23,605 bases of DNA from a virus. Its lineage: Duplodnaviria > Heunggongvirae > Uroviricota > Caudoviricetes. Shown one piece after another: positions 1-23,551 of this stretch. The notes beneath the pieces were generated by a model. It was not told where the DNA came from, did no database searches, and saw only the letters and a list, made by a program, of their open reading frames with translations. The stretch covers positions 1-23,605 of the IMG/VR virus record IMGVR_UViG_2537562191_000021. One strand, given 5' to 3'. The translations under genes were made by a program, and so were the position numbers. Positions within the stretch are counted from its first letter, which is position 1, and each line of letters starts with the position of its first letter.

Positions 1-53
1 ATGAAAATAATGCAAATAATAACAATGAGATAAAAGAATCTGTCAGGAGATCA

Positions 54-1046
54 TTGCGCGAAAAAATGGCGAAAATGATCCCCGAAGAAGATAAAAGCGC
101 CCCAAAAATTGAGGGATCTTCAGCAATGATCCCTGGCGGTGCTGTGCAACGTGCCACATTGCCCACTACGAATGTGGCTCGCGACATGATGAAGAACGGC
201 GCAGAAGAACACCTGCGGTTAGCAATTCAAATGGCGCAAGAGCGCGCACTTCAGTATCAAAGCATTGTTGATCAGGAGGCCGAACGTCTACAGGCGGAAA
301 TAGACGCCTTGGGCGATAAAGAGCCAGAAGGAATGCACCCTGGGCAGCGCCTTCTCGGTCTAATCAGTGACGCGGCCTACTACATGAATGATTTTATCAG
401 TAGGTTGGCAGCTATATATCAGTCCGAACAAAAGCTGCGACAGGGGGATGAAAAGCTTCGTCAGAGCGCTCGCCAGCAAGCATTCAAAGAGGCTGAGGCC
501 AGAGAAAAACTCGAATTAGCACGCCTACAGGCCGAACAGCGTGGCAAAGAGATTGAATATCGCATTGGCGCTGACGCACGCGCTGCCAGAGTTATCGCCG
601 CCGCTATACGTATGCGTGAGCGCGAGGAACTGGATGATATCGGTGTTGCTGAATACATCGAGCGCCAGGGGGTCAGCGTCCCGGCTATCCTCGCGGCGCG
701 CGCGGCGAAAGCTATCACTCTTCTCGAACCACCTGTTTCTGACGTCAATGATGTTGATGATGAACAGCTGGACAAAGAGGCAAGGGAGTTTGCAACGCTT
801 CAGGCTAACCATCCGCAATGGCTGGCAGAGCGCCGGGCGGATGTGGCAACCATTGTTGAAGAATTGGGGTGCGGAGATTACGACCGCAATGGCGAGCGTA
901 AAGCTGGAGAATTCGAGGCCAACGACGAAGAGCTGGATATTGACCCTTCGGCAACGGCTGAAATTTACGGTGATTATGATGCATCTGATGCAGGGTATGA
1001 CGCCGGAGATGATGATATCGCGATAGAACCGCCGGAGGATGATTAA
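54..1046 (+). CDS. Putative terminase small / DNA-recognition subunit (PacA-like position), probably 5'-partial
   Basis: Reading frame is open from nt 3 to 1046; there is no well-spaced SD for TTG54 or ATG66, so the gene probably begins upstream of the window. Coiled-coil-like centre and strongly acidic C-terminus. Stop overlaps the start of the terminase large subunit gene (TAATG at 1044-1048). Function is inferred from position only. Confidence 0.35.
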   Translation: MREKMAKMIPEEDKSAPKIEGSSAMIPGGAVQRATLPTTNVARDMMKNGAEEHLRLAIQMAQERALQYQSIVDQEAERLQAEIDALGDKEPEGMHPGQRLLGLISDAAYYMNDFISRLAAIYQSEQKLRQGDEKLRQSARQQAFKEAEAREKLELARLQAEQRGKEIEYRIGADARAARVIAAAIRMREREELDDIGVAEYIERQGVSVPAILAARAAKAITLLEPPVSDVNDVDDEQLDKEAREFATLQANHPQWLAERRADVATIVEELGCGDYDRNGERKAGEFEANDEELDIDPSATAEIYGDYDASDAGYDAGDDDIAIEPPEDD

Positions 1047-2554
1047 TGGCTGGCGGGCGCAAGATTAAATGCGTCACCAGCGATCCACGCTGGCGCGATA
1101 TGGTAATCAAATACCGCTACAACTTTACCCAGGCTGTTGTCGATATTTTTGGGATGTTCCCCTCCCACCAGCAGCAGCAGATCATTCAGTCAGTGCAGGA
1201 AACGGGGAGTAGGACGACCGTCACGTCCGGACACGGAACGGGGAAGTCGTCCCTTACCGCGATGTTGCTGTTGATTTTTATGATCCTGTTCCCCGATGCC
1301 CGTGTCATCATTGTTGCTAACAAGATAGGCCAGGTAAAAACAGGCGTATTCAAATACGTTAAACAGTATTGGGCGAATGCAGTTAAGCGTCATGGGTGGT
1401 TGCAGACCTATTTTGTCCTCTCTGACACCATGTTTTATGAGCGCTCCCGTAAGGGGATTTGGGAAGTTCTCTGCAAAGGTTATCGACTCGGCAACGAAGA
1501 AGCGCTGGCGGGGGAACACGCGGCACATTTGCTTCTAATTCTGGACGAAGCATCTGGTATATCTGATAAGGCGATCGGCGTAATGACCGGTGCTCTTACT
1601 GAAGAAGATAACCGGATGTTGATGCTATCCCAGCCAACAAGGCCAAGTGGTTATTTCTACGATTCGCACCATTCTCAAGCAAAAACCCCAGACAACCCGA
1701 AAGGGATCTGGACAGCAATTGTTCTTAACTCGGAAGAATCACCGTTCGTCACACCACAATTCATCAAGCAGAAGCTTCTGGAATATGGCGGGCGCGATTC
1801 TATTGAGTACATGGTCAAGGTGCTTGGTCAGTTCCCACGAGAAATTAACGGCTATTTGCTTGGTCGTGATGAATGCGATCGCGCTGCTCGCCGCAAGGTG
1901 TTGTTGGAGAAAAACTGGGGATGGGTGGCAACGGCTGACGTTGGTAATGGGCGAGATAAGTCGGTCCTCAACATCTGCAAAGTATCTGGTCACAGGGATA
2001 AGCGGCGCGTTGTTAACTTTAAGGTAATGGAGATGCCTGGCACTATGGACCCATTGGCCTTTGCTGACTTCATATATAACGAATGTACGCCGGAAAAATA
2101 CCCGAATATAACAATCGCGGTTGATGCTGATGGTTTTGGTTCTGATACGTGTGCGCAGTTGGTGCGTCGTGGTGCGAACCCGGTACGTATTCGGTGGGGA
2201 AAACCCATGTTTGCGAACAAAGACAGGGAGCGATTTGTTAATCAGCGTGCCTACGCAAATATTATGGCGCGAGATGCCATAAAGTCAGGGCGTATGCGGA
2301 TAGACAGTGACCCTAAAACGGCAGAGCAAGCGTCAAAAATCCCCTTTTTACTGAATGAAGAAGGGAAAATGGCGATGATGCGCAAAGAGCACATGCGGCA
2401 AAAGCTAAACATCAAATCGCCTGACCGATGGGATACCTACTGCTTCACTATGCTGGTGGACTATGTGCCTGCTAATGAAGATATTGGTGCCGAAATGGCA
2501 ACTTTCCGAGATCAGGTTCTGGCGGATATCGAAATGCCGGATCTGGATATATAA
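1046..2554 (+). CDS. Terminase large subunit (ATPase plus nuclease)
   Basis: 502 aa. Walker A TSGHGTGKSS; Walker B LLLILDEASG; C-terminal RNase-H-like nuclease aspartates (VATADVGNG, AVDADGFG, SPDRWDT). Translationally coupled to the upstream ORF. Confidence 0.8.
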   Translation: MAGGRKIKCVTSDPRWRDMVIKYRYNFTQAVVDIFGMFPSHQQQQIIQSVQETGSRTTVTSGHGTGKSSLTAMLLLIFMILFPDARVIIVANKIGQVKTGVFKYVKQYWANAVKRHGWLQTYFVLSDTMFYERSRKGIWEVLCKGYRLGNEEALAGEHAAHLLLILDEASGISDKAIGVMTGALTEEDNRMLMLSQPTRPSGYFYDSHHSQAKTPDNPKGIWTAIVLNSEESPFVTPQFIKQKLLEYGGRDSIEYMVKVLGQFPREINGYLLGRDECDRAARRKVLLEKNWGWVATADVGNGRDKSVLNICKVSGHRDKRRVVNFKVMEMPGTMDPLAFADFIYNECTPEKYPNITIAVDADGFGSDTCAQLVRRGANPVRIRWGKPMFANKDRERFVNQRAYANIMARDAIKSGRMRIDSDPKTAEQASKIPFLLNEEGKMAMMRKEHMRQKLNIKSPDRWDTYCFTMLVDYVPANEDIGAEMATFRDQVLADIEMPDLDI

Positions 2555-2555
2555 A

Positions 2556-2572
2556 GCCCCGCGATGCGGGGC
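2556..2572. terminator. GC-rich hairpin between convergent genes, putative bidirectional terminator
   Basis: gccccgc-gat-gcggggc, a 7-bp perfect stem, between the terminase stop (2554) and the stop of the minus-strand gene (2582); a weak T-rich run follows on the plus strand. Confidence 0.4.
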
Positions 2573-2581
2573 CGGTTGTGA

Positions 2582-3619
2582 TTACCAGAGCTTCGCGGCG
2601 TACTGCGTTTGGGGGAATGTGTATCCGTAACGTTCTTCGATTGCTTTGCCGTATTTTTTACGAGCTTCATTCAGTTTAATGCCGGTCAGGTCGTCTCCAG
2701 AGGCCATCATTACGTCTAACAATTCCAGATCCATTTTATCCAGCCTTGCCATTGCTTCACGTGATGTACGTATCTTACGTTCAATGATATGGCGAATAGC
2801 CGGATCGGCATCCTCCAGCATCTTAGCGGATTTCTGCTTAAGGCTTTCATTGCGAATATCGATGTTCCTTAAGATGTACGACTTCGCAACGTAGCTTGGC
2901 TGGTGTTTTTCCAGGTCACGAACACGATATAAGTTAAAATCGCCGAGAAGGCTGCAAGGTACCGATTCGACGCCAGAATAAATTGTAATGCTCCGGCGTT
3001 CACCAACATTATTGACAACGGGGATCGTTGTCTTCGGTAGTCTTGCGAAAACCAATGCGCCATGTGCGCCAACTCTAAAGCGAGAAAGGGCATTGCTGCC
3101 TTCGATGTTTGTTGTCAGCACAACATCTGTATATGCCTCTTTACGCGCCCGGTAGATCTCGCCTTCAGGCTCAGCTTCAAAGAAGCGCTGTTCTTCTTCA
3201 AGAGCACCTACGATTTGAGAAAAAACCCTATTTTTCAGGCTTTTCTTTATGATTTTGTCGTATTTTTTTAGCAATTGTTCACGTGTAAATGTACGTGTTG
3301 TTGTAGCGCTTTGCACAACGACATGCGTGCTTTGATTGGTGTCCTCAATGATGAATGGGATCGGAGAATATACAGACTCAACAATGTTCGACGCTTTGCC
3401 GTCGGCATCGCGGCACATGTCAACGAAGGCTTTCCATTCAGCAAGACATTTTTCAGCTTCTTCTAATATGTTTTGGTCATGCGTTAATGCAACATGGCGG
3501 AATTCCTCGCCAGCATAACTGGTATCATGGAAAACAGAGTTTGCGACCACCAGCTCTTTCCACCGTTCAGCGGTTTGCAGGAACCGTTTGTACTCTTTCT
3601 CGATCGACTTCTTACTCAT
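2582..3619 (-). CDS. Hypothetical protein, 345 aa, no recognised domain; sits at the position an immunity repressor occupies in P1-type genomes
   Basis: Long ORF with no competing frame; divergent from the cre-like gene across an AT-rich 394-bp control region; the recurrent 13-bp motif lies 17-29 bp upstream of its start codon. Confidence 0.6.
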   Translation of the reverse strand: MSKKSIEKEYKRFLQTAERWKELVVANSVFHDTSYAGEEFRHVALTHDQNILEEAEKCLAEWKAFVDMCRDADGKASNIVESVYSPIPFIIEDTNQSTHVVVQSATTTRTFTREQLLKKYDKIIKKSLKNRVFSQIVGALEEEQRFFEAEPEGEIYRARKEAYTDVVLTTNIEGSNALSRFRVGAHGALVFARLPKTTIPVVNNVGERRSITIYSGVESVPCSLLGDFNLYRVRDLEKHQPSYVAKSYILRNIDIRNESLKQKSAKMLEDADPAIRHIIERKIRTSREAMARLDKMDLELLDVMMASGDDLTGIKLNEARKKYGKAIEERYGYTFPQTQYAAKLW

Positions 3620-3635
3620 TATTCCTACTCGATTT

Positions 3636-3648
3636 AGTTTTCTAACAT
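3636..3648 (+). promoter_or_regulatory. Recurrent 13-bp motif AGTTTTCTAACAT (candidate operator), copy 1
   Basis: Exact 13-mer AGTTTTCTAACAT, 17-29 bp upstream of the minus-strand start codon at 3619; the same 13-mer recurs at 22739-22751 and as reverse complement at 17604-17616. Confidence 0.4.
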
Positions 3649-3828
3649 AAAATTACTATGACAAATTTATGTCGAATAACAGAGTGAGTAAAGGATCGAA
3701 CTGTGATTTTTTGTCATCAATTTTAGAAAACCAACCGTAGAAACCACACTTCGCAAATTAAAGACCATGAAGGCAACGTGTTACTGGTCATCATCAATCT
3801 ATGATGGATTTAAAAAAATCGGCATTTT

Positions 3829-3862
3829 ATAACTTTAAATAATTGGCATTATTTAAAGTTAG
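3829..3862. other. lox-like recombination site (13-bp inverted repeats flanking an 8-bp asymmetric spacer)
   Basis: ATAACTTTAAATA / ATTGGCAT / TATTTAAAGTTAG. The right arm reverse-complements to CTAACTTTAAATA, a 12/13 match to the left arm. Arms share ATAACTT..ATA with the canonical loxP arm ATAACTTCGTATA. Lies 152 bp upstream of the Cre-family gene. Confidence 0.55.
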
Positions 3863-3870
3863 GCTATAAT
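3843..3870 (+). promoter_or_regulatory. Putative sigma70 promoter reading toward the cre-like gene, overlapping the lox-like spacer and right arm
   Basis: -35 TTGGCA (3843-3848), 16-bp spacer, -10 TATAAT (3865-3870). Confidence 0.3.
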
Positions 3871-4013
3871 CATGTGTAGATGAACAGTGTTGACATCACT
3901 GAAAATACGTGCTTCGAATCAAAGGCTTGTATTTTGAAAATTAACTTATAGCTACCCTGTCATTTTTATATTTTTCGCGTAGCGTCATCTGTATATAGAG
4001 GTCAAATAGTTTC

Positions 4014-5042
4014 ATGAGTGAATTAATTATCTCTGGCAGTTCCGGTGGTTTTCTGCGCAACATTGGCAAAGAGTACCAGGAGGCCGCAGAAAACTTTATG
4101 CGGTTCATGAATGACCAGGGGGCTTACGCGCCGAATACTTTGCGCGATCTCCGGTTAGTGTTTCACTCTTGGGCGAGATGGTGTCACGCTCGCCAGCTCG
4201 CCTGGTTCCCGATCTCACCAGAGATGGCCCGCGAGTATTTTCTTCAGCTGCATGATGCTGATCTGGCTTCGACCACCATTGATAAGCACTACGCCATGCT
4301 GAACATGCTGCTTTCGCATTGTGGCCTTCCACCACTTTCGGATGATAAAAGTGTTTCTCTGGCTATGCGGCGCATCCGGCGCGAAGCGGCAACTGAAAAA
4401 GGCGAACGAACAGGCCAGGCTATACCGCTGCGGTGGGACGATCTGAAACTGCTCGACGTCCTGCTGTCCAGGTCAGAACGGCTGGTGGACCTGCGCAACC
4501 GGGCTTTTCTCTTTGTTGCATACAATACGCTGATGCGTATGTCGGAAATATCGCGTATTCGTGTAGGAGATCTGGACCAAACAGGTGACACTGTCACGCT
4601 ACATATTTCACACACGAAGACAATAACGACCGCCGCCGGGCTTGATAAGGTGCTTTCCCGTCGCACTACCGCTGTGCTGAATGACTGGCTGGATGTTTCA
4701 GGGCTTCGCGAACATCCTGACGCAGTGCTGTTCCCGCCGATACACCGTAGCAATAAGGCCAGGCTCACGACAACGCCCCTTACTGCACCTGCAATGGAGA
4801 AAATATTCAGCGACGCCTGGGTGTTGCTGAATAAAAGAGATGCTACGCCAAACAAAGGAAGATACCGGACGTGGACCGGGCATAGTGCACGCGTCGGGGC
4901 CGCTATTGATATGGCTGAAAAGCAGGTGTCTATGGTGGAGATCATGCAGGAAGGAACCTGGAAGAAACCGGAAACACTTATGCGGTATCTTCGCCGTGGC
5001 GGCGTGTCTGTGGGGGCTAATAGCCGCCTGATGGATTTATAA
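4014..5042 (+). CDS. cre: Cre-family tyrosine site-specific recombinase
   Basis: 342 aa, alignable along its length to P1 Cre as remembered (WFP..PE, LNML..GLP.PSD, AFL..AYNTL.R..EI.RIRV.D, HSARVGAA.DMA, W...RYLR). Catalytic Arg-His-Arg-Trp-Tyr positions are conserved. SD AGAGG 8 nt upstream. Confidence 0.85.
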   Translation: MSELIISGSSGGFLRNIGKEYQEAAENFMRFMNDQGAYAPNTLRDLRLVFHSWARWCHARQLAWFPISPEMAREYFLQLHDADLASTTIDKHYAMLNMLLSHCGLPPLSDDKSVSLAMRRIRREAATEKGERTGQAIPLRWDDLKLLDVLLSRSERLVDLRNRAFLFVAYNTLMRMSEISRIRVGDLDQTGDTVTLHISHTKTITTAAGLDKVLSRRTTAVLNDWLDVSGLREHPDAVLFPPIHRSNKARLTTTPLTAPAMEKIFSDAWVLLNKRDATPNKGRYRTWTGHSARVGAAIDMAEKQVSMVEIMQEGTWKKPETLMRYLRRGGVSVGANSRLMDL

Positions 5043-5045
5043 ATT

Positions 5046-5058
5046 AAATTTCTAACAC
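5046..5058 (+). promoter_or_regulatory. Recurrent motif copy (AAATTTCTAACAC) immediately downstream of the cre-like stop
   Basis: 10/13 match to AGTTTTCTAACAT with core TTCTAACA intact; lies between the cre-like stop and the SD of the next gene. Confidence 0.3.
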
Positions 5059-5115
5059 ATCTTTTTAGATTAACGCCTTTGCTGTAAAGTACCCTCGCCT
5101 ATTTAGGAGGGTGCT

Positions 5116-5460
5116 TTGCAGAGTCAAATCACGGAATCAAGACGCTTCAAGGTGGAAGGTTACACCGTAACCTTCGCCGCTGGTGTTAAGAACAGTCATG
5201 CTGTCGTTGTGTTCGGCATCATGACCGGGCTTGAGGCCGTCCCTGTGTTTACCCTCGAAAAAAACTGGCGAAATCTGGCGGAAGCAGAAAGCTACGTCCG
5301 GAAAGTAACCATCATTGCCGCCGAAAAACTCCTGGCCCACTATCAGGAAAATTATCGCACTATGGTCGAGAAGATTAATCTCGCTTTCACTCGCCCCACT
5401 ACCGGCTTTATTGCACCGGATACTAATGCAGGTCGATATCCTGCAAGGGGGCGTCGGTGA
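5116..5460 (+). CDS. Hypothetical protein, 114 aa (TTG start)
   Basis: Strong SD AGGAGG (5105-5110) 5 nt before TTG at 5116; first gene of a tightly packed six-gene plus-strand cluster. Confidence 0.5.
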   Translation: MQSQITESRRFKVEGYTVTFAAGVKNSHAVVVFGIMTGLEAVPVFTLEKNWRNLAEAESYVRKVTIIAAEKLLAHYQENYRTMVEKINLAFTRPTTGFIAPDTNAGRYPARGRR

Positions 5461-5933
5461 AAACTTATTACCCATCTCTGAATTGTTACCCGTCTTCCTA
5501 TCCAGAATTATCCGGGAAGCTGTTAGCTCTATTAGCTAAAGCACCTACGGAATGGTTTAAGCCAGTCGTTATCAATCCACACTTCCTGGATTACGGAACT
5601 GTTCGCACTCGTAACGAACTCAAAAACCTACTGGCGCATGGATTCATTCGACACCGTGCCGGGAAAGGCTATCAGTTAGCGATTGCGCCAGAAGAGGCCG
5701 TGCGGCTATTCGCATATCGTGACAGCCAGACAAAAGCTCGGGTAATAGCTCAAATACTTCATAACGGCAGCACCTATGCCCGCCAGTTTGGCGGCGACAC
5801 GTCGCAGTTCTTGCGGGCGGTGCGATCGCTGGAGGAGCAAGGAGTTATTGAAAGTTCCTGTCTTCCTGTTCCTACCGTTCCACATATCAAACGTCGGGTT
5901 TACACCTTCACGCAGAGAGCTAAAAAACAATGA
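5457..5933 (+). CDS. Hypothetical protein, 158 aa (GTG start overlapping the upstream stop)
   Basis: Start overlaps the previous stop; its own stop overlaps the dut start (ATGA at 5930-5933). Confidence 0.5.
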   Translation: MKTYYPSLNCYPSSYPELSGKLLALLAKAPTEWFKPVVINPHFLDYGTVRTRNELKNLLAHGFIRHRAGKGYQLAIAPEEAVRLFAYRDSQTKARVIAQILHNGSTYARQFGGDTSQFLRAVRSLEEQGVIESSCLPVPTVPHIKRRVYTFTQRAKKQ

Positions 5934-6424
5934 TTTACGTAAAAGTGAAACGCCTACATCCGGCAGCAAAACTTCCAGCTTATGCCACCTCCGGATCGGC
6001 GGCGATGGATTTTGAGGCTGTTGAAATAAAACCATGCGTCGATAGCAATGGTGCAATTTCCTCAAGCTGGTGGGTGTACACCGGACTGGCTATGGAGATC
6101 CCGCCCGGCTGGTGTCTGAAACTCTATCCGCGCTCCGGATTGGGCTGCAAAAAACATACTCGCCTGGCTAACTGCGTAGGAATTATCGACTCAGATTATC
6201 GCGGTGAAATCATGGCAAAACTGATTACTGATCCCGGCGGGGAAGGCGTTTGTCTCAAGCCTGGAATGGCTGTCATGCAAGGCATTTTTGAGCGTGTTGA
6301 ACAAGTCTCACTAGTCGAGGTTGAGGAACTCAACGAAACGGAACGTGGTGCTGGTGGCTTTGGTAGCACATCGGAAGACCACTTTGAAATCAAGCGCACA
6401 CCGCTTCAGTACGCAAAGTTTTAA
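5930..6424 (+). CDS. dut: dUTP pyrophosphatase (trimeric dUTPase)
   Basis: Conserved dUTPase motifs in order: AKLP..AT.GSAAMD, PRSGLG, GIIDSDYRGE, GMAVMQGIF, ERGAGGFGSTS. Confidence 0.85.
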   Translation: MIYVKVKRLHPAAKLPAYATSGSAAMDFEAVEIKPCVDSNGAISSSWWVYTGLAMEIPPGWCLKLYPRSGLGCKKHTRLANCVGIIDSDYRGEIMAKLITDPGGEGVCLKPGMAVMQGIFERVEQVSLVEVEELNETERGAGGFGSTSEDHFEIKRTPLQYAKF

Positions 6425-16566: not shown

Positions 16567-17562
16567 TCAGTTATTGAACGTGATCACTCCGCGCTCGATG
16601 GCGAAGTCGAAAAGCTGGTTAGCTGCTACGTAAAGGCGTATGCCATGTGCTTTTTCCCATGCCCGGACATCGTTTTCTGCGCTTCTGGCGCAGTCATCGC
16701 AAAGAGGAACAGCCCAGCGGTCGTGTTCGTTTAACGAGCGGGCGCGGTACATGAATGGGTGATTAACCTTGCCGCCGCAGCCTACACACGGGCGAGACAC
16801 CACAAACCGGAGATAAGCCGGGCTTTTTCCGAGTAAGGTTTTTGGACGGCGCATATATAGGAGGCCAGAATCTTCATCGACGGACAGATTGACGATCTGC
16901 TCTGCGGAAATATCCACCAGCTCGCGGGTACTATGCTCCCAGGTAATATCCGACTCTTTCAGAGTGCCGGTAGGGATTTCAGTTTTTGGCTGACAAAATG
17001 CAATGCGACCAGCTTCATCAGGCAGTTCGTCTTTAAGATTCCGGCGAATGGCCCAAAAGGTGAGTTCAACCATGCTCAGATCGCGATCTGGCGGAAGTTT
17101 TAACTCGCTGGCAGCCCAGTTCATAATCCAGTTGGCGCGATTCAGTGACAGTTGGTCTTCCAGCTTGCCGTATCCCTTCATCATGTATTCCGCATCATGC
17201 TTCCAGCACAGGCGAACGGCAGAACCGTTATAGAAATGGGTGGTTAACTGGTGGCTGCAATCGCGCTTATCATGCGCCTGGCAATCGTGAATGTTGGTGC
17301 TAACCCAGTGAACGAGAGAATCCTCACCACCTAACGCGTTAAATACGCGCTCACTTTGAAAAAAGGGTGCCAGTGACTGGTTGGTAACCAGTGAATAATT
17401 CAGGTCAACGACACCATCAGGGGTGTTTTCAGCCTGTTCACGCGGCAATGGGGATATAAGAAAACGACGTCCTGCGCCGATGTAATTGCTGGTGGGCTTA
17501 TCTACAGGAAAGACAGCCACACCAGTTTCATTTACGACATATGGGGTGATTATTGCACTCAT
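16567..17562 (-). CDS. DUF968-like protein, 331 aa, with a C-terminal Cys cluster
   Basis: C-terminus CVGCGGKVNHPFMYRARSLNEHDRWAVPLCDDCAR; DUF968 assignment is from memory of lambdoid-prophage proteins. Confidence 0.5.
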   Translation of the reverse strand: MSAIITPYVVNETGVAVFPVDKPTSNYIGAGRRFLISPLPREQAENTPDGVVDLNYSLVTNQSLAPFFQSERVFNALGGEDSLVHWVSTNIHDCQAHDKRDCSHQLTTHFYNGSAVRLCWKHDAEYMMKGYGKLEDQLSLNRANWIMNWAASELKLPPDRDLSMVELTFWAIRRNLKDELPDEAGRIAFCQPKTEIPTGTLKESDITWEHSTRELVDISAEQIVNLSVDEDSGLLYMRRPKTLLGKSPAYLRFVVSRPCVGCGGKVNHPFMYRARSLNEHDRWAVPLCDDCARSAENDVRAWEKAHGIRLYVAANQLFDFAIERGVITFNN

Positions 17563-17603
17563 AATGCATACCGACTCTGTTTTGTTCCGAGCGGTAAAAT
17601 AAT

Positions 17604-17616
17604 ATGTTAGAAAACT
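17604..17616 (-). promoter_or_regulatory. Recurrent motif copy (reverse complement AGTTTTCTAACAT), exact
   Basis: Lies in the 98-bp gap between the phosphatase gene and the DUF968 gene; a degenerate second copy (core TTCTAAC at 17627-17633) lies 10 bp away in the opposite orientation. Confidence 0.4.
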
Positions 17617-17660
17617 AAAATCAATGTTCTAACGCGTTTTTGAGTGCGTAAGTGATTTGA

Positions 17661-18353
17661 TCAGACTTTAAGCTGCCCTCCCTTCACCTGCATTAGCGTC
17701 AGATTTCCGCAAAAAACCGCGCCCGTGTCTATGTAGTGCTGATTCCAGTATGCTTTTGGTCTTCGTACCGGTGTGTGCCCAAAGATAAAGCGATCTGCGC
17801 CTGTAATTTCTCCACCAATGCCATCTATCGAATCACCGACGCGACTGCGCGACCAGACAACATCAAAAAGCGACACATCCTTACCGAACTGGTACTCTCC
17901 ACCTGGATAGTCGGCATGGGCTATAACGATAGTTTCATGCCCGATGTTCAACTCAATGATATATGGCAGACGCTTTACCAGCTCCACCAGCGCCCTGGCT
18001 AATATTTCCTGATCAGCGTCCAGCATGAAGAACCATTGTCCGCCATTCATTAGCCAGTTATTCACGTTGCCATCAGGACTTAACGCATCGATCATTAATC
18101 GCTCGTGGTTTCCCATAACCGACCGAAACCAGGGCATCTGCAATAGCTCCAGGCATTCAACATTTTCGGTGCCGCGATCGATAAGGTCGCCAACCGATAT
18201 CAGTAAATCCTGCGCCGGGTCAAAATCCACACGATGGAGTTCGGACATCAGTCTGGTGAAGCAACCATGCAGATCACCAACAACCCATATGTTTCTGTAG
18301 CCAGAACCATCAATACGGCTATATAAATTCACTTCATGCATAGCCTGTGTCAT
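17661..18353 (-). CDS. Ser/Thr protein phosphatase (lambda PPase / NinI-like metallophosphoesterase)
   Basis: 230 aa; [49 protein letters not shown] are co-linear with phage lambda Ser/Thr phosphatase as remembered. Confidence 0.85.
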
Positions 18354-20474: not shown

Positions 20475-20974
20475 TTGTCAGCTCCTTTGCGAATCTGTTC
20501 CGCCCATTCTTCAAGGGATTTCTCCGCATATTCACCGGACAGGCCATCAATCGGGTGCGATTCATTAGCCAACTCTTCTTTCGCTGACAGAATCATGCGC
20601 GTAACGTCGAAAACTTCACGTAAAGATTTATTGATAAATCCGTGGTTGAAAGCAGCAGCAAGACGGCTTGCGGTATAGTTAATCCCCTCGTTGCGAGCCT
20701 CCGCACGAATTTCAGCCAGGAAAGCATCGGTGACTGGCATATTTCCTGTTGCCTTCATGGCCTCCAAAATAACCAGAACGCCATCTCTCCCTACCTCCTC
20801 GCAGATAACCTCGGTGTTGTCGCCAACAACATCGCAGAATGCCTGAACTGCTTTACGAGCAAGTGCATTCTCCGCCGCCAGCGCAGCACACGCTTTCTCA
20901 AGTCGGGAAATTTCCGTTACATACTCAGCGTTACGCTCTGCCAGTTGTGCGGGCGTTAAACCTTCAGACTTCAT
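20471..20974 (-). CDS. Ead/Ea22-like protein (paralog)
   Basis: 167 aa; coiled coil (LEKACAALAAENALARKA) and TDAFLAEIRAEA motif. Confidence 0.55.
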   Translation of the reverse strand: MKSEGLTPAQLAERNAEYVTEISRLEKACAALAAENALARKAVQAFCDVVGDNTEVICEEVGRDGVLVILEAMKATGNMPVTDAFLAEIRAEARNEGINYTASRLAAAFNHGFINKSLREVFDVTRMILSAKEELANESHPIDGLSGEYAEKSLEEWAEQIRKGADK

Positions 20975-21281
20975 ACACTCTCCTTTCGAAATAAACGTAC
21001 TGATTAATCATGCCCAGGGGCATTTCGAGTTTTTCCGCGATCTCACGGCGGGGAACGCCACACTGATGAAGCTGCCGCGCCAGCTCTATATCGCTCTGCC
21101 GGTATTTGGCTGACTGGTGAAAGTCACCTTTCAGAATCATGCTGATCCCAAGCTCTCGCGCTTTAGTCCTGACGGCATCACCGGTACGACCGATCAGCTT
21201 CCCAATACTCTCGACCGTCATAGTTCCGGCGCACTGGCGGAGTATCATGATTTCTGCCCTTCCCCATCCCCGCCAGCTCAC
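20964..21281 (-). CDS. Putative HTH DNA-binding protein
   Basis: Two helix-turn-helix-like segments (TVESIGKLIGRTGDAVRTKARELGI and RREIAEKLEMPLGMINQY); true start may be an internal Met. Confidence 0.45.
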   Translation of the reverse strand: MSWRGWGRAEIMILRQCAGTMTVESIGKLIGRTGDAVRTKARELGISMILKGDFHQSAKYRQSDIELARQLHQCGVPRREIAEKLEMPLGMINQYVYFERRVYEV

Positions 21282-21889
21282 GCAGAACTCCTTCTAACCA
21301 AAAGAACGCCATCTTCAGAAACAACGTTGCAGGACTTCAGGTAATTCATTGCCTCTTTCGGTAATGGATTCTTTGGATCGGCGTTTGCCAGGGATTTCGA
21401 TAACCTCATGATAAATTTGATCATTACCTTCTGGCGGAGCTTGTGCTCATGAGATAAAGAAAGGTAATAGGAAATGGTATGGGCTAAACGCTCACGAAGC
21501 TGTTCTGTGCCGTGATATACAGCAGCGATATCACGCAGTGCATTGACCAGTTCCCGGTAAATATGCGGAGCAACCTGGCATTCAATGTTGGTTGGTGACT
21601 CATAAATTACAGTCAGCCCCAGCTTTTCAGCCAGCGCGTGCTCTGCACGAGCACCAACCGATTCTTCCCATCGATTGAGCAAATAAATCGCATCAGCAGA
21701 ACGCACCATTGCCAGGCAAATATCCATGTATTCACTCTGGCAAAGGCCACCAGGTAACACCGCTGGATTCAGAACGATATGCCCTTCAGCCATCAGCTCG
21801 CTCGCTTTCGCATTAAACGCCGCACGGTTGTAATCTGGATAACCAGTCATCGGCCCCGCGATGTAAATTTTCAAAATACGTTTCACCAT
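21278..21889 (-). CDS. DUF4406-like (nucleoside 2-deoxyribosyltransferase-fold) protein with a roughly 100-aa C-terminal extension
   Basis: Start at ATG 21889 (MVKRILKIYIAGPMTGYPDYNRAAFN...ADAIYLLNRWEESVGARAEHALA); the start overlaps the stop of an upstream small ORF (TGATG). Confidence 0.5.
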   Translation of the reverse strand: MVKRILKIYIAGPMTGYPDYNRAAFNAKASELMAEGHIVLNPAVLPGGLCQSEYMDICLAMVRSADAIYLLNRWEESVGARAEHALAEKLGLTVIYESPTNIECQVAPHIYRELVNALRDIAAVYHGTEQLRERLAHTISYYLSLSHEHKLRQKVMIKFIMRLSKSLANADPKNPLPKEAMNYLKSCNVVSEDGVLLVRRSSA

Positions 21890-22044
21890 CAAAATTTCCC
21901 CAAAATCGTGACGCAAAACATAAGCACTGCGAAAAGCTCAATACCAAGCTCAAGTAGCGCCAACGCCCCGAAAAACAACACATAGAACAGGCCAATCTCA
22001 TTCACAGATGGCTGGTGGATCGCACTTAAAGCTATAAGCATCAT
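21889..22044 (-). CDS. Small hydrophobic peptide, 51 aa (single predicted transmembrane helix); first ORF of the minus-strand array
   Basis: Hand translation: MMLIALSAIHQPSVNEIGLFYVLFFGALALLELGIELFAVLMFCVTILGKF; strong SD GGAGGA immediately upstream; stop coupled to the DUF4406 start. Below the ORF-track threshold. Confidence 0.4.
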   Translation of the reverse strand: MMLIALSAIHQPSVNEIGLFYVLFFGALALLELGIELFAVLMFCVTILGKF

Positions 22045-22082
22045 GTCCTCCAAACAGTTATCAGGAATGATATTAATGTTTT

Positions 22083-22095
22083 GTGTTAGAAAATC
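22083..22095 (-). promoter_or_regulatory. Recurrent motif copy (reverse complement GATTTTCTAACAC) in the divergent control region
   Basis: Core TTCTAACA intact; lies between the minus-strand array start (22044) and the Ref-like gene start (22162). Confidence 0.35.
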
Positions 22096-22161
22096 AATTT
22101 TGAATATCTAACCATTTTGATCAATCATAGAAAAATCGCTGAAAAGTAAGAGGCAGCCATC

Positions 22162-22740
22162 ATGCAGAAACAGAGCTACTGGGAGAAACAGAGACAAAAA
22201 GCCATGCAAAGATTGGCTGACCCGGCCTGGCGAGAGGAACAAAGGGCAAAGCGCCTTCAACAAGCTCAACGCCAGCAGCAGCGAGCGAGAGAAAAAGCCG
22301 CATCGCCTGAATATCGGCAAAAGAGAATTGAAAAAGCAAAGCAATATGACCAGCGGAGAAAAGAGAAAGCTGTATCCGCTCCGTCCAAAAAAACACGCAC
22401 GTCACGCGGCCTGAAGGGCAGATCACTCACAGCCGATGAACGCCGGATACAGACCGCTATCGGTACTCTCCCCTGCATTGCCTGCCATATTCACGGGCAA
22501 CATAGCCCAGTGGTATCCCTGCACCATATCTTCGGGAGAACGGCAGAGAACGCGCATAAATATGTCCTCCCTTTGTGTAAATGGCACCACCAGTACGCAG
22601 CGCCAGCCGAGGTCCGAGAACAATATCCCTGGCTGGTCCCTGTTCATGCTGATGGAAAAATAGGCGGAAAAGCAGATTTCATACGGCACAATGCCGATGA
22701 AATGGCGTTGTATCAGATGGCAATTGAATTGATAAATTAG
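22162..22740 (+). CDS. HNH-type endonuclease with a lysine/arginine-rich disordered N-terminus (Ref-like, RecA-dependent nuclease family candidate)
   Basis: 192 aa; the first roughly 80 aa are K/R/Q/E-rich and low-complexity; C-terminal core has CIACHIHGQH...SLHHIFGRTAEN...LPLCKWHH (Cys/His metal ligands with an HNH-like His-Asn-His pattern). Architecture matches P1 Ref as remembered. Confidence 0.5.
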   Translation: MQKQSYWEKQRQKAMQRLADPAWREEQRAKRLQQAQRQQQRAREKAASPEYRQKRIEKAKQYDQRRKEKAVSAPSKKTRTSRGLKGRSLTADERRIQTAIGTLPCIACHIHGQHSPVVSLHHIFGRTAENAHKYVLPLCKWHHQYAAPAEVREQYPWLVPVHADGKIGGKADFIRHNADEMALYQMAIELIN

Positions 22741-22751
22741 TTTTCTAACAT
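22739..22751 (+). promoter_or_regulatory. Recurrent motif copy (AGTTTTCTAACAT), exact, abutting the Ref-like stop codon
   Basis: Exact 13-mer starting 2 nt inside the stop codon of 22162-22740. Confidence 0.4.
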
Positions 22752-22985
22752 TTTAAGTTGAATTGGAAATTTCTCCGATGTACATTCACTACCGATTGGC
22801 ACACCGGTCAACTTTTTGAGACAAACTGTTTAGTTTTTCGTATTATTGCCGCCGCCATACCTATGGCGGTGCAATATAGGTGGCTGAAAAGCCCCCGTTG
22901 ACTCACGGTGTTCCAGCCTTTATTGCGCCGCCACCAGACCGTGGAACAGTCGATGGCGGCTCCGAAAGCAAGGAGTCACTACACT

Positions 22986-23239: not shown

Positions 23240-23343
23240 AATACTGACTGTTGCGCCCTGGCATTATCGTGGGGTATATTTCTACGGCACCTTAGAAAAA
23301 CGGGTGCCGGGATTGGAACCCCGGATAATGTCAAAGGCGACAC

Positions 23344-23367
23344 AGACGCCGAAAGCGTCTTTTTTTG
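23344..23367 (+). terminator. Rho-independent terminator
   Basis: agacgc-cgaaa-gcgtct, a perfect 6-bp stem with 5-nt loop, followed by TTTTTT. Confidence 0.6.
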
Positions 23368-23551
23368 TGTCATGCCATCGCACAGCCATACGTAGCGTTT
23401 AGCTCAGAGATCAATGGTAGTGCTGGCTGGGCTGCCGAAAGGCAGGCCGGTTCCCTTTGACGCCGGTAGTTCCAACCCAGTCAGTGCTACCGCCATTGAG
23501 ATTGGAACCTCACGCGGTAGCTCCTTAACTTAGTCAAAGGAGGCTGCCAAT

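Follow-up and report, generated by a model that had tools for sequence, protein, structure and literature searches.

A recurrent asymmetric motif as the probable operator core of the D6-type C1 repressor in a P1-family plasmid prophage

Introduction

The viral record IMGVR_UViG_2537562191_000021 (Caudoviricetes) was analysed over its positions 1 to 23,605, and this whole stretch of 23,605 nucleotides (nt) is called the window below. On both sides of ref, a gene for a RecA-dependent endonuclease, the window carries copies of a 13-bp motif, AGTTTTCTAACAT, that recurs at other operon boundaries, and the locus between 22,083 and 22,751 raises the question of which protein would read this motif and what it would control. 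An earlier reading made from the DNA letters only (the sequence-only reading) had taken the copies for the operator set of the immunity repressor of the element.

By megablast and transferred annotation, the window is a D6-like plasmid prophage of the P1 family. P1 C1 binds as one molecule per asymmetric operator, and the C1 operators of P1 and P7 comprise Oref, Omat, Ossb, Oc4, OrepL, Orlf, Odmt, Oban, O26, Oppp, OpmgR, OpmgT, Olpa and Oc1 (formerly Op2...Op99). The kind of system described here is textbook P1 biology; the unannotated part is the sequence of the D6-type operator, the map of its sites and the geometry of its paired sites. The GenBank and RefSeq records of D6 have no annotated operator features, and sequence, map and geometry were not found in the searchable literature, which excluded the D6 genome paper, so prior publication is possible. 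We conclude that the motif is very probably the core of the operator of the D6-type C1 repressor, binding by C1 being proposed by analogy with P1.

Results

The exact 13-mer occurs at 3636-3648 (+), 17604-17616 (-) and 22739-22751 (+) of the window. These three copies compare with a mean of 0.01 in shuffled sequences (0 of 100 shuffles reached three), and the claim of the sequence-only reading that they are far above chance was borne out. The degenerate copies that it had listed were also recovered, with 10 of 13 matches at 5046-5058 (+, AAATTTCTAACAC) and 22083-22095 (-, GATTTTCTAACAC) and 9 of 13 at 17623-17635 (+, AATGTTCTAACGC). Two copies were new: a weak one with 11 of 13 matches at 3720-3732 (-, GGTTTTCTAAAAT) and one at 22097-22115 (+), the weak partner of the ref-upstream site. 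A search of the window allowing up to three mismatches found 9 matches against 7.1 expected, which is not above chance, and the degenerate copies therefore needed independent support; for those with 10 of 13 matches this came solely from their extended flanks (27-28 bits with a 19-bp matrix) and from conservation. The intergenic copies lie 16 nt upstream of the c1 start codon (ATG), just past the dre stop codon, in the gap between ppp and a pdcB-like gene and in the gap between orf88 and ref, and the copy at 22739 shares its first bases with the last 2 nt of the ref stop codon. Apart from this 2-nt overlap, all copies are in short intergenic regions, as had been stated.

The 19-bp matrix was built from aligned core occurrences in the complete D6 genome, with seeds chosen by eye. 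In this alignment the 13-mer is the core of an asymmetric site of ~19 bp with the consensus AAATTAGTTTTCTAACAYA; the consensus has no dyad symmetry, in agreement with the asymmetry noticed before, conservation spans ~19 bp, and beyond that the sites have no flanking repeat structure in common. The matrix matched the D6 genome 17 times at 12 bits or more, compared with 1.5 times in Markov shuffles, and 16 of the 17 matches are intergenic in a genome of which intergenic DNA makes up 10.2%. Since the seeds were chosen by eye, the bare core TTTCTAACA was also counted, and 11 of its 12 occurrences in D6 are intergenic (binomial p 1.4e-10); the enrichment of intergenic over coding sequence across the whole element, whose absence was to have refuted the operator reading, was accordingly seen. 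The E. coli plasmid pE2863-2 carries the same site set as D6. A cross-validation matrix, trained only on ten sites that D6 carries beyond the stretch homologous to the window, ranked the five strong window sites first (23.5-27.8 bits) against a shuffle baseline with a mean best score of 11.4 and 0.08 matches of at least 15 bits per shuffle. Its ranks 6 and 7 are weak partners at an offset of exactly +15.

The first strong site, GATTTAGTTTTCTAACATA, lies at 3631-3649 (+; 26.9 bits, 23.5 cross-validated), in antiparallel orientation to c1 and 11 nt ahead of its ATG; it is proposed as the autoregulatory site of this gene. Relatives were classed by tblastn with the window C1, and their identities are given relative to it. 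In a Shigella plasmid whose C1 is 70% identical, the core of the 3631-3649 site is kept and its flanks have diverged; three metagenomic contigs (L013, L014 and L015) with C1 of 44-51% identity carry TTTTCTAACA ahead of c1 at a distance of 19-24 nt, oriented as in the window. A candidate c1 promoter, TTTACT-17-TAAATT at 3664-3692, was found just upstream of the operator in a relaxed scan. A weak candidate for a second site of the c1 region, with the core GGTTTTCTAAAAT (11 of 13), lies at 3719-3737 (-; 5.6-7.3 bits) and adjoins a conserved TGACA -35-like box on the c1 strand; the copy is kept in the Shigella plasmid, and TTTAGAAAACC and TTTTTTGTCA are conserved between D6 and that plasmid.

The second strong site, at 5041-5059 (+; 27.7-27.8 bits), overlaps the dre stop codon and is parallel to the rightward orf117-orf116-dut-...-isaA operon, 56 nt upstream of it. 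It forms a conserved block in a three-way alignment of the window, D6 and the Shigella plasmid. The same recombinase-stop position carries the clade-specific motif in Leclercia, Citrobacter and Pantoea plasmids and in L014 and L015; in L013 the nearest TTTTCTAACA comes after the next gene downstream of the recombinase and not at the recombinase stop.

Two further sites are bivalent. The one between ppp and the pdcB-like gene (17603-17636) consists of a strong half at 17603-17621 (-; 28.3 bits) and a weak half at 17618-17636 (+; 8.0 bits), its geometry is identical in D6 and the Shigella plasmid, and the strong half falls within a conserved candidate promoter on the minus strand, TTGATT-17-TATTTT (17596-17624). 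The one between orf88 and ref (22082-22115), at distances of 40 nt to the orf88 ATG and 46 nt to that of ref, has a strong half at 22082-22100 (-; 27.9 bits) and a weak half at 22097-22115 (+; 6.3-8.9 bits). In the Shigella relative both of its halves are strong (24.8 and 25.8 bits), and weak promoter-like matches overlap the pair in both directions. The last strong site, at 22734-22752 (+; 27.0 bits, 24.3 cross-validated), overlaps the ref stop codon and heads the orf86-orf85-isrK-c4-icd-ant (immI) unit, to which it is parallel. It is a conserved block relative to the Shigella plasmid, lies ~660 nt upstream of c4 (vs ~190 nt in P1), and is overlapped in the relaxed scan by TTGAAT-16-TAACAT at 22724-22751. 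At many sites, among them the Shigella orthologue of the 22739 site, TAACAG or TAACAC takes the place of TAACAT.

When pairs were defined as opposite-strand matches within 45 bp, the plus-strand site of every pair started exactly 15 bp after the minus-strand site. The paired sites are divergent and overlap by 4 bp at their A/T-rich 5' ends, giving a 34-bp unit in which the TCTAAC cores are about 22 bp apart. This offset was found at four loci, namely hrdC, ppp/pdcB, ref/orf88 and lpa, in D6, pE2863-2, the window and the Shigella relative. P1 Oban (Obanab, or Op72a/b) likewise consists of two inverted asymmetric C1 sites overlapping into a quasi-palindrome at a single promoter. The D6-type geometry nevertheless differs from it, because the Oban halves (68667-68683, + and 68678-68694, -) converge with a 6-bp overlap at their 3' ends, whereas the D6-type halves diverge.

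The gene adjoining the first site, at 2582-3619 on the minus strand, encodes a 345-amino-acid (aa) product that matches D6 C1, the prophage master repressor, at 100% identity, and is annotated as c1 in AY753669 and MF356679; the product that had been put forward as a candidate repressor is thus the C1 homologue. Its protein cluster carries PF27008 (Phage_P7_repressor_C1), a small family of 83 clusters at 50% identity among 1.8 billion proteins, and its identity to P1 C1 is about 20-21% (21% over 240 aa, E 2e-8, BLASTP). It had no match in a local Pfam copy or among the sequences in the Protein Data Bank (PDB). As in P1, c1 sits between pacB and the lox/rox-recombinase module. Homologues were detected in 149 plasmid records by tblastn with the window C1, 131 of them at least 60% identical. 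D6-type C1 has an extra C-terminal helical region of about 100 aa relative to P1 C1. No homologue of P1 Lxc or Coi was found in D6 or pE2863-2 (tblastn, E at least 0.9), and none of P1 Ant1 on comparison with D6; Lxc was also not detected in a D6-like plasmid (PMC6799933).

The positions of the sites were compared with those of the P1 C1 operators, taken from the annotation of the RefSeq P1 record. P1 ref (2077-2637) is flanked by Oref (1962-1978) and by Omat (2628-2645), which overlaps its 3' end, and the window ref is likewise flanked on both sides, the 22082-22115 site corresponding to Oref and the 22734-22752 site to Omat. The D6-type lpa site is 76 nt upstream of lpa and parallel to it, as is Olpa at 70 nt in P1. 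In D6, the sites upstream (22465-22483) and downstream (21260-21278) of repL correspond to OrepL and Orlf, the bivalent pair at hrdC-dcm-dmt (64114-64147) to Odmt, several sites at pmgR/pmgS/pmgM to OpmgRa/b, OpmgT and Oppp, and the site adjoining c1 to the operators upstream of P1 c1. Sites specific to D6 are those at the dre stop codon, between ppp and the pdcB-like gene and ahead of orf52, and the P1 operators that have no D6 counterpart (ssb, ban) belong to genes that D6 lacks. The view of the sequence-only reading that the affected genes mirror the C1 regulon of P1 is therefore upheld at the level of the junctions.

The operator sequence itself differs, being AAATTAGTTTTCTAACAYA in the D6 type and ATTGCTCTAATAAATTT in P1. 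The P1/P7 consensus had been given correctly in the sequence-only reading (PMC8546580; P1 record), which had also pointed to a shared core CTAA; sharing holds, and the shared core is the larger TCTAA. The D6-type sites do not match the P1/P7 consensus beyond TCTAA. The D6 core is absent from P1, the P1 cores are absent from the window, and the four P1 cores found in D6 are all in coding sequence. Since only TCTAA is shared, the D6-type sites belong to a different specificity class and not to P1/P7 immunity.

Across the relatives, the motif type tracks the C1 clade. The Shigella plasmid and the three contigs have TTTCTAACA at syntenic junctions, namely upstream of c1, at or near the recombinase stop and upstream of lpa, and the Shigella plasmid additionally at ppp/pdcB and ref. 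The Leclercia and Citrobacter plasmids, with C1 of 27-29% identity (49% to each other), have aGATTCTAAGGcTTTT with the core TTCTAAGG and no D6-type site; their motif is found at the recombinase stop, upstream of c1, rdgC and ref, at the 3' end of a pmgS-like gene and after pro, and 8 of the 9 Citrobacter copies are intergenic when checked against the annotation. The Pantoea plasmid (C1 28%) has ACAnAATTCTAAA with the core ATTCTAAA, and P1 has ATTGCTCTAATAAATTT with the core GCTCTAAT. Core counts per genome form a diagonal table, with one motif type per clade. Judged by these comparisons, repressor clade and motif change together around the common TCTAA core. The operator blocks are conserved islands within diverged spacers in three-way alignments of the window, D6 and the Shigella plasmid. 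P1 and D6 both live in E. coli, so the specificity is phage-encoded and a host factor cannot explain motifs that differ by lineage at shared junctions. The base that follows TCTAA is T, C, G or A in the four clades, and a switch of specificity by this single base was considered. It is not adopted, because the D6 clade has TCTAAT in its lpa operators and TCTAAA at the weak c1 site, so that the flanks must contribute.

Discussion

The D6-type arrangement has the features of an immC C1-repressor/operator system: a gene of the C1 family, asymmetric sites of ~19 bp, and their dispersed intergenic placement at operon heads. By position, its sites fall at the c1, lpa, repL, ref, dmt operon and immI junctions in D6, and the immI region consists of the C4 RNA followed by icd and ant, with a C1-type operator upstream. 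P1/P7 and the D6 type have in common a homologous PF27008 repressor, asymmetric sites of 17-19 bp, some of them bivalent, with a TCTAA core, and about 17-22 such sites at operon heads round a plasmid prophage of ~90 kb; P1 and the D6 type also share an immI region (C4 RNA, icd, antirepressor) downstream of one operator. An operator set of the immunity repressor, as first proposed, is thus supported by position, synteny and co-variation, and we infer that C1 is the binder, that, as in P1, one C1 monomer occupies each site and that binding leads to repression.

In such a system, C1 would bind asymmetric ~19-bp sites AAATTAGTTTTCTAACAYA where early, replication, accessory and immunity operons begin. 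Its targets in the window would be c1, the orf117-dut-isaA operon, ref and the orf86-isrK-c4-icd-ant immI unit, and the leftward array would be controlled at two points, one where it begins in the orf88/ref gap and one ahead of the pdcB-like gene. Beyond the window, copies of this site lie upstream of lpa, repL and hrdC-dcm-dmt and in the pmgR/S region. Two C1 molecules would probably bind jointly to each 34-bp bivalent site. With C1 bound, the operator-bearing promoters would stay off in the lysogen, and derepression would come from the immI antirepressor, which would be held in check by the C4 RNA.

Several observations weigh against this assignment. The sites at c1, at ref and downstream of repL do not have the P1 polarity with respect to the adjacent gene. 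A stringent sigma-70 scan of the window found no promoter overlapping any site, and the relaxed matches (8 of 12) overlap only 3 of the 5 strong sites and allow only a weak inference. The weak sites at 3719-3737, 17618-17636 and 22097-22115 score below values reached in shuffles, and geometry and conservation are all that speaks for them. Co-variation by clade, taken alone, cannot separate C1 from other proteins that diverge with the genome.

This last point leads to the best surviving alternative, that another element-encoded and co-diverging regulator binds the sites, such as an unrecognised early regulator or the late activator Lpa. Divergence of whole genomes would give any lineage-specific DNA-binding protein the same co-variation, D6 Lpa is only 31% identical to P1 Lpa, and the P1-type late-promoter box AAGTGACT is nearly absent from D6 (1 match with its -10 in D6, 0 in the window). 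D6 late promoters cannot be mapped with the P1 box, and Lpa is therefore rejected on the grounds of the gene set. The genes adjoining the sites form the P1 C1 regulon (c1, lpa, repL, the dmt operon, ref and immI) and are not the late genes. None of lydA, R/S, sit, prt/pro, the sheath gene and pacA has a site upstream, and the synteny is with annotated C1 operators and not with late promoters. The site 11 nt from the c1 ATG, moreover, fits autoregulation, and the TCTAA core, common to the experimentally defined P1 C1 operator, points to the homologous protein. We consider this alternative improbable.

Slightly less probable still is that the motif is part of a conserved early promoter for the host RNA polymerase, with TTG... 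as the -35 and TAACAT as a -10-like element. A TTG often directly precedes the site, TAACAT agrees with a -10 hexamer at A2 and T6, and the relaxed scan has matches at 22724-22751 and around 17603-17621. Against this, TTG and the core are separated by a varying distance (13, 15 or 23 nt by manual count), the -10-like T is lost at many sites (TAACAG/TAACAC), and sites occur antiparallel to the only adjacent gene or at gene 3' ends. P1 and D6 also have different motifs at the same junctions with the same host polymerase, and fixed divergent pairing is typical of protein-binding sites. Finally, the count of 13-mers with three mismatches (9, not above the 7.1 of shuffles) is the one point in favour of a chance repeat, a small dispersed repeat remnant or a mobile-element scar of no regulatory role, which has a negligible probability given the three exact copies against 0.01 expected, the genome-wide intergenic bias (p about 1e-10), the sites kept at orthologous junctions down to 44% C1 identity while their flanks diverge, and the lack of shared flanking repeat structure beyond ~19 bp; a chance origin of the motif is excluded.

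With C1 as the favoured binder, a more tentative proposal, which we put forward with considerable doubt, concerns how recognition diversified in the family. The clade operators might form a series of GCTCTAAT-AAATTT in P1, AGTTTTCTAACAY in D6, GATTCTAAGGCTTT in Citrobacter and Leclercia and ACAnAATTCTAAA in Pantoea, with a distinct cooperative mode in the D6 clade in which divergent pairs offset by 15 bp, possibly through the extra C-terminal helical domain, would replace the missing co-repressor Lxc.

The operators of lambdoid CI/Cro (OL, OR) are, as is proposed for the D6-type sites, sites of a master repressor that include an autoregulatory site adjoining the repressor gene; they are dyad-symmetric, bound by dimers and clustered at two loci, whereas the D6-type sites are asymmetric and spread genome-wide. 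Another parallel is offered by Dre/rox and Cre/lox in the same immC region, where the P1 architecture was likewise kept and the protein-DNA specificity diverged in the D6 lineage. Dre/rox is an experimentally established recombinase and target, whereas the D6-type pairing of C1 and operator is deduced by analogy.

If C1 reads these sites, they define the immunity specificity of the D6 lineage; E. coli and Salmonella commonly carry D6-like plasmid prophages. The map of the regulon, with about 17 sites and 5-6 transcription units in the window, predicts which accessory genes are silent in the lysogen. It would also provide a comparative series of repressor-operator pairs for the C1 family and could yield a repressor/operator pair orthogonal to that of P1 C1, as Dre/rox is to Cre/lox. 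To a P1 specialist, the feature is expected and no surprise.

Other features of the window

The window is 99.9% identical to pE2863-2 (NZ_AP018804). By megablast, the D6 immC record AY753669 matches window positions 1-6238 at 98.6% identity, and the D6 genome covers only 47% of the window length at 94.7% identity. Between about 5500 and 17000 the window is mosaic relative to phage D6: the accessory-gene array from dre to ppp differs and the operator-bearing junctions are identical. Examples from this array in pE2863-2 are a gene of the PAPS-reductase family and a gene with an ASCH domain.

The gene map was carried over from the annotations of the D6 and pE2863-2 records, and the gene order is pacA-pacB-c1-rox-dre ... 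ppp ... ref-immI. A partial pacA at the left end is followed by pacB (1046-2554), c1, rox (3830-3861) and dre (4014-5042). The best sigma-70-like promoter in the gap between c1 and dre, TTGGCA-16-TATAAT (11 of 12) at 3843-3870 (+), overlaps rox and reads toward dre, and no C1-type site overlaps it. The rightward operon that starts 56 nt past the 5041-5059 operator is followed by phd/doc and humD, which lie between the isaA operon and a long leftward array including the pdcB-like gene (16567-17562) and ppp (17661-18353). In L013, L014 and L015, genes with a Tad2-like domain (PF11195) are present near dut and lpa, and in L014 the domain is fused to the dUTPase. The start codon of orf88 is at 22041, and orf88 is divergent from ref (22162-22740, +; D6 orf87 and the pE2863-2 annotation).

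Downstream of the 22734 operator, an isrK-like small RNA (sRNA) at 23287-23365 (+; Rfam RF01394, 62.7 bits) and a C4 antisense RNA at 23410-23497 (+; RF01695, 77.1 bits), both above the gathering score, form the start of the immI antirepressor control region, and icd and ant come after c4 in D6 and pE2863-2. The isrK-like RNA is an Hfq-binding sRNA directly upstream of C4, and a terminator-like hairpin (23344-23360) lies between the two. D6-like elements have two icd-antirepressor (immI-like) loci, at 20693-21331 and 74022-75996 in D6, each with an upstream C1-type site (21260-21278 and 75978-75996, respectively), and the two differ in antirepressor type (Roi-like and Rha/KilA-like). In its 23.6 kb, the window has 18 copies of the Chi sequence GCTGGTGG against 0.53 expected (for example at 1165-1172, 6066-6073 and 22011-22018), and Chi-containing k-mers also top the lists of repeated words in the Shigella, Leclercia, Citrobacter and Pantoea relatives.

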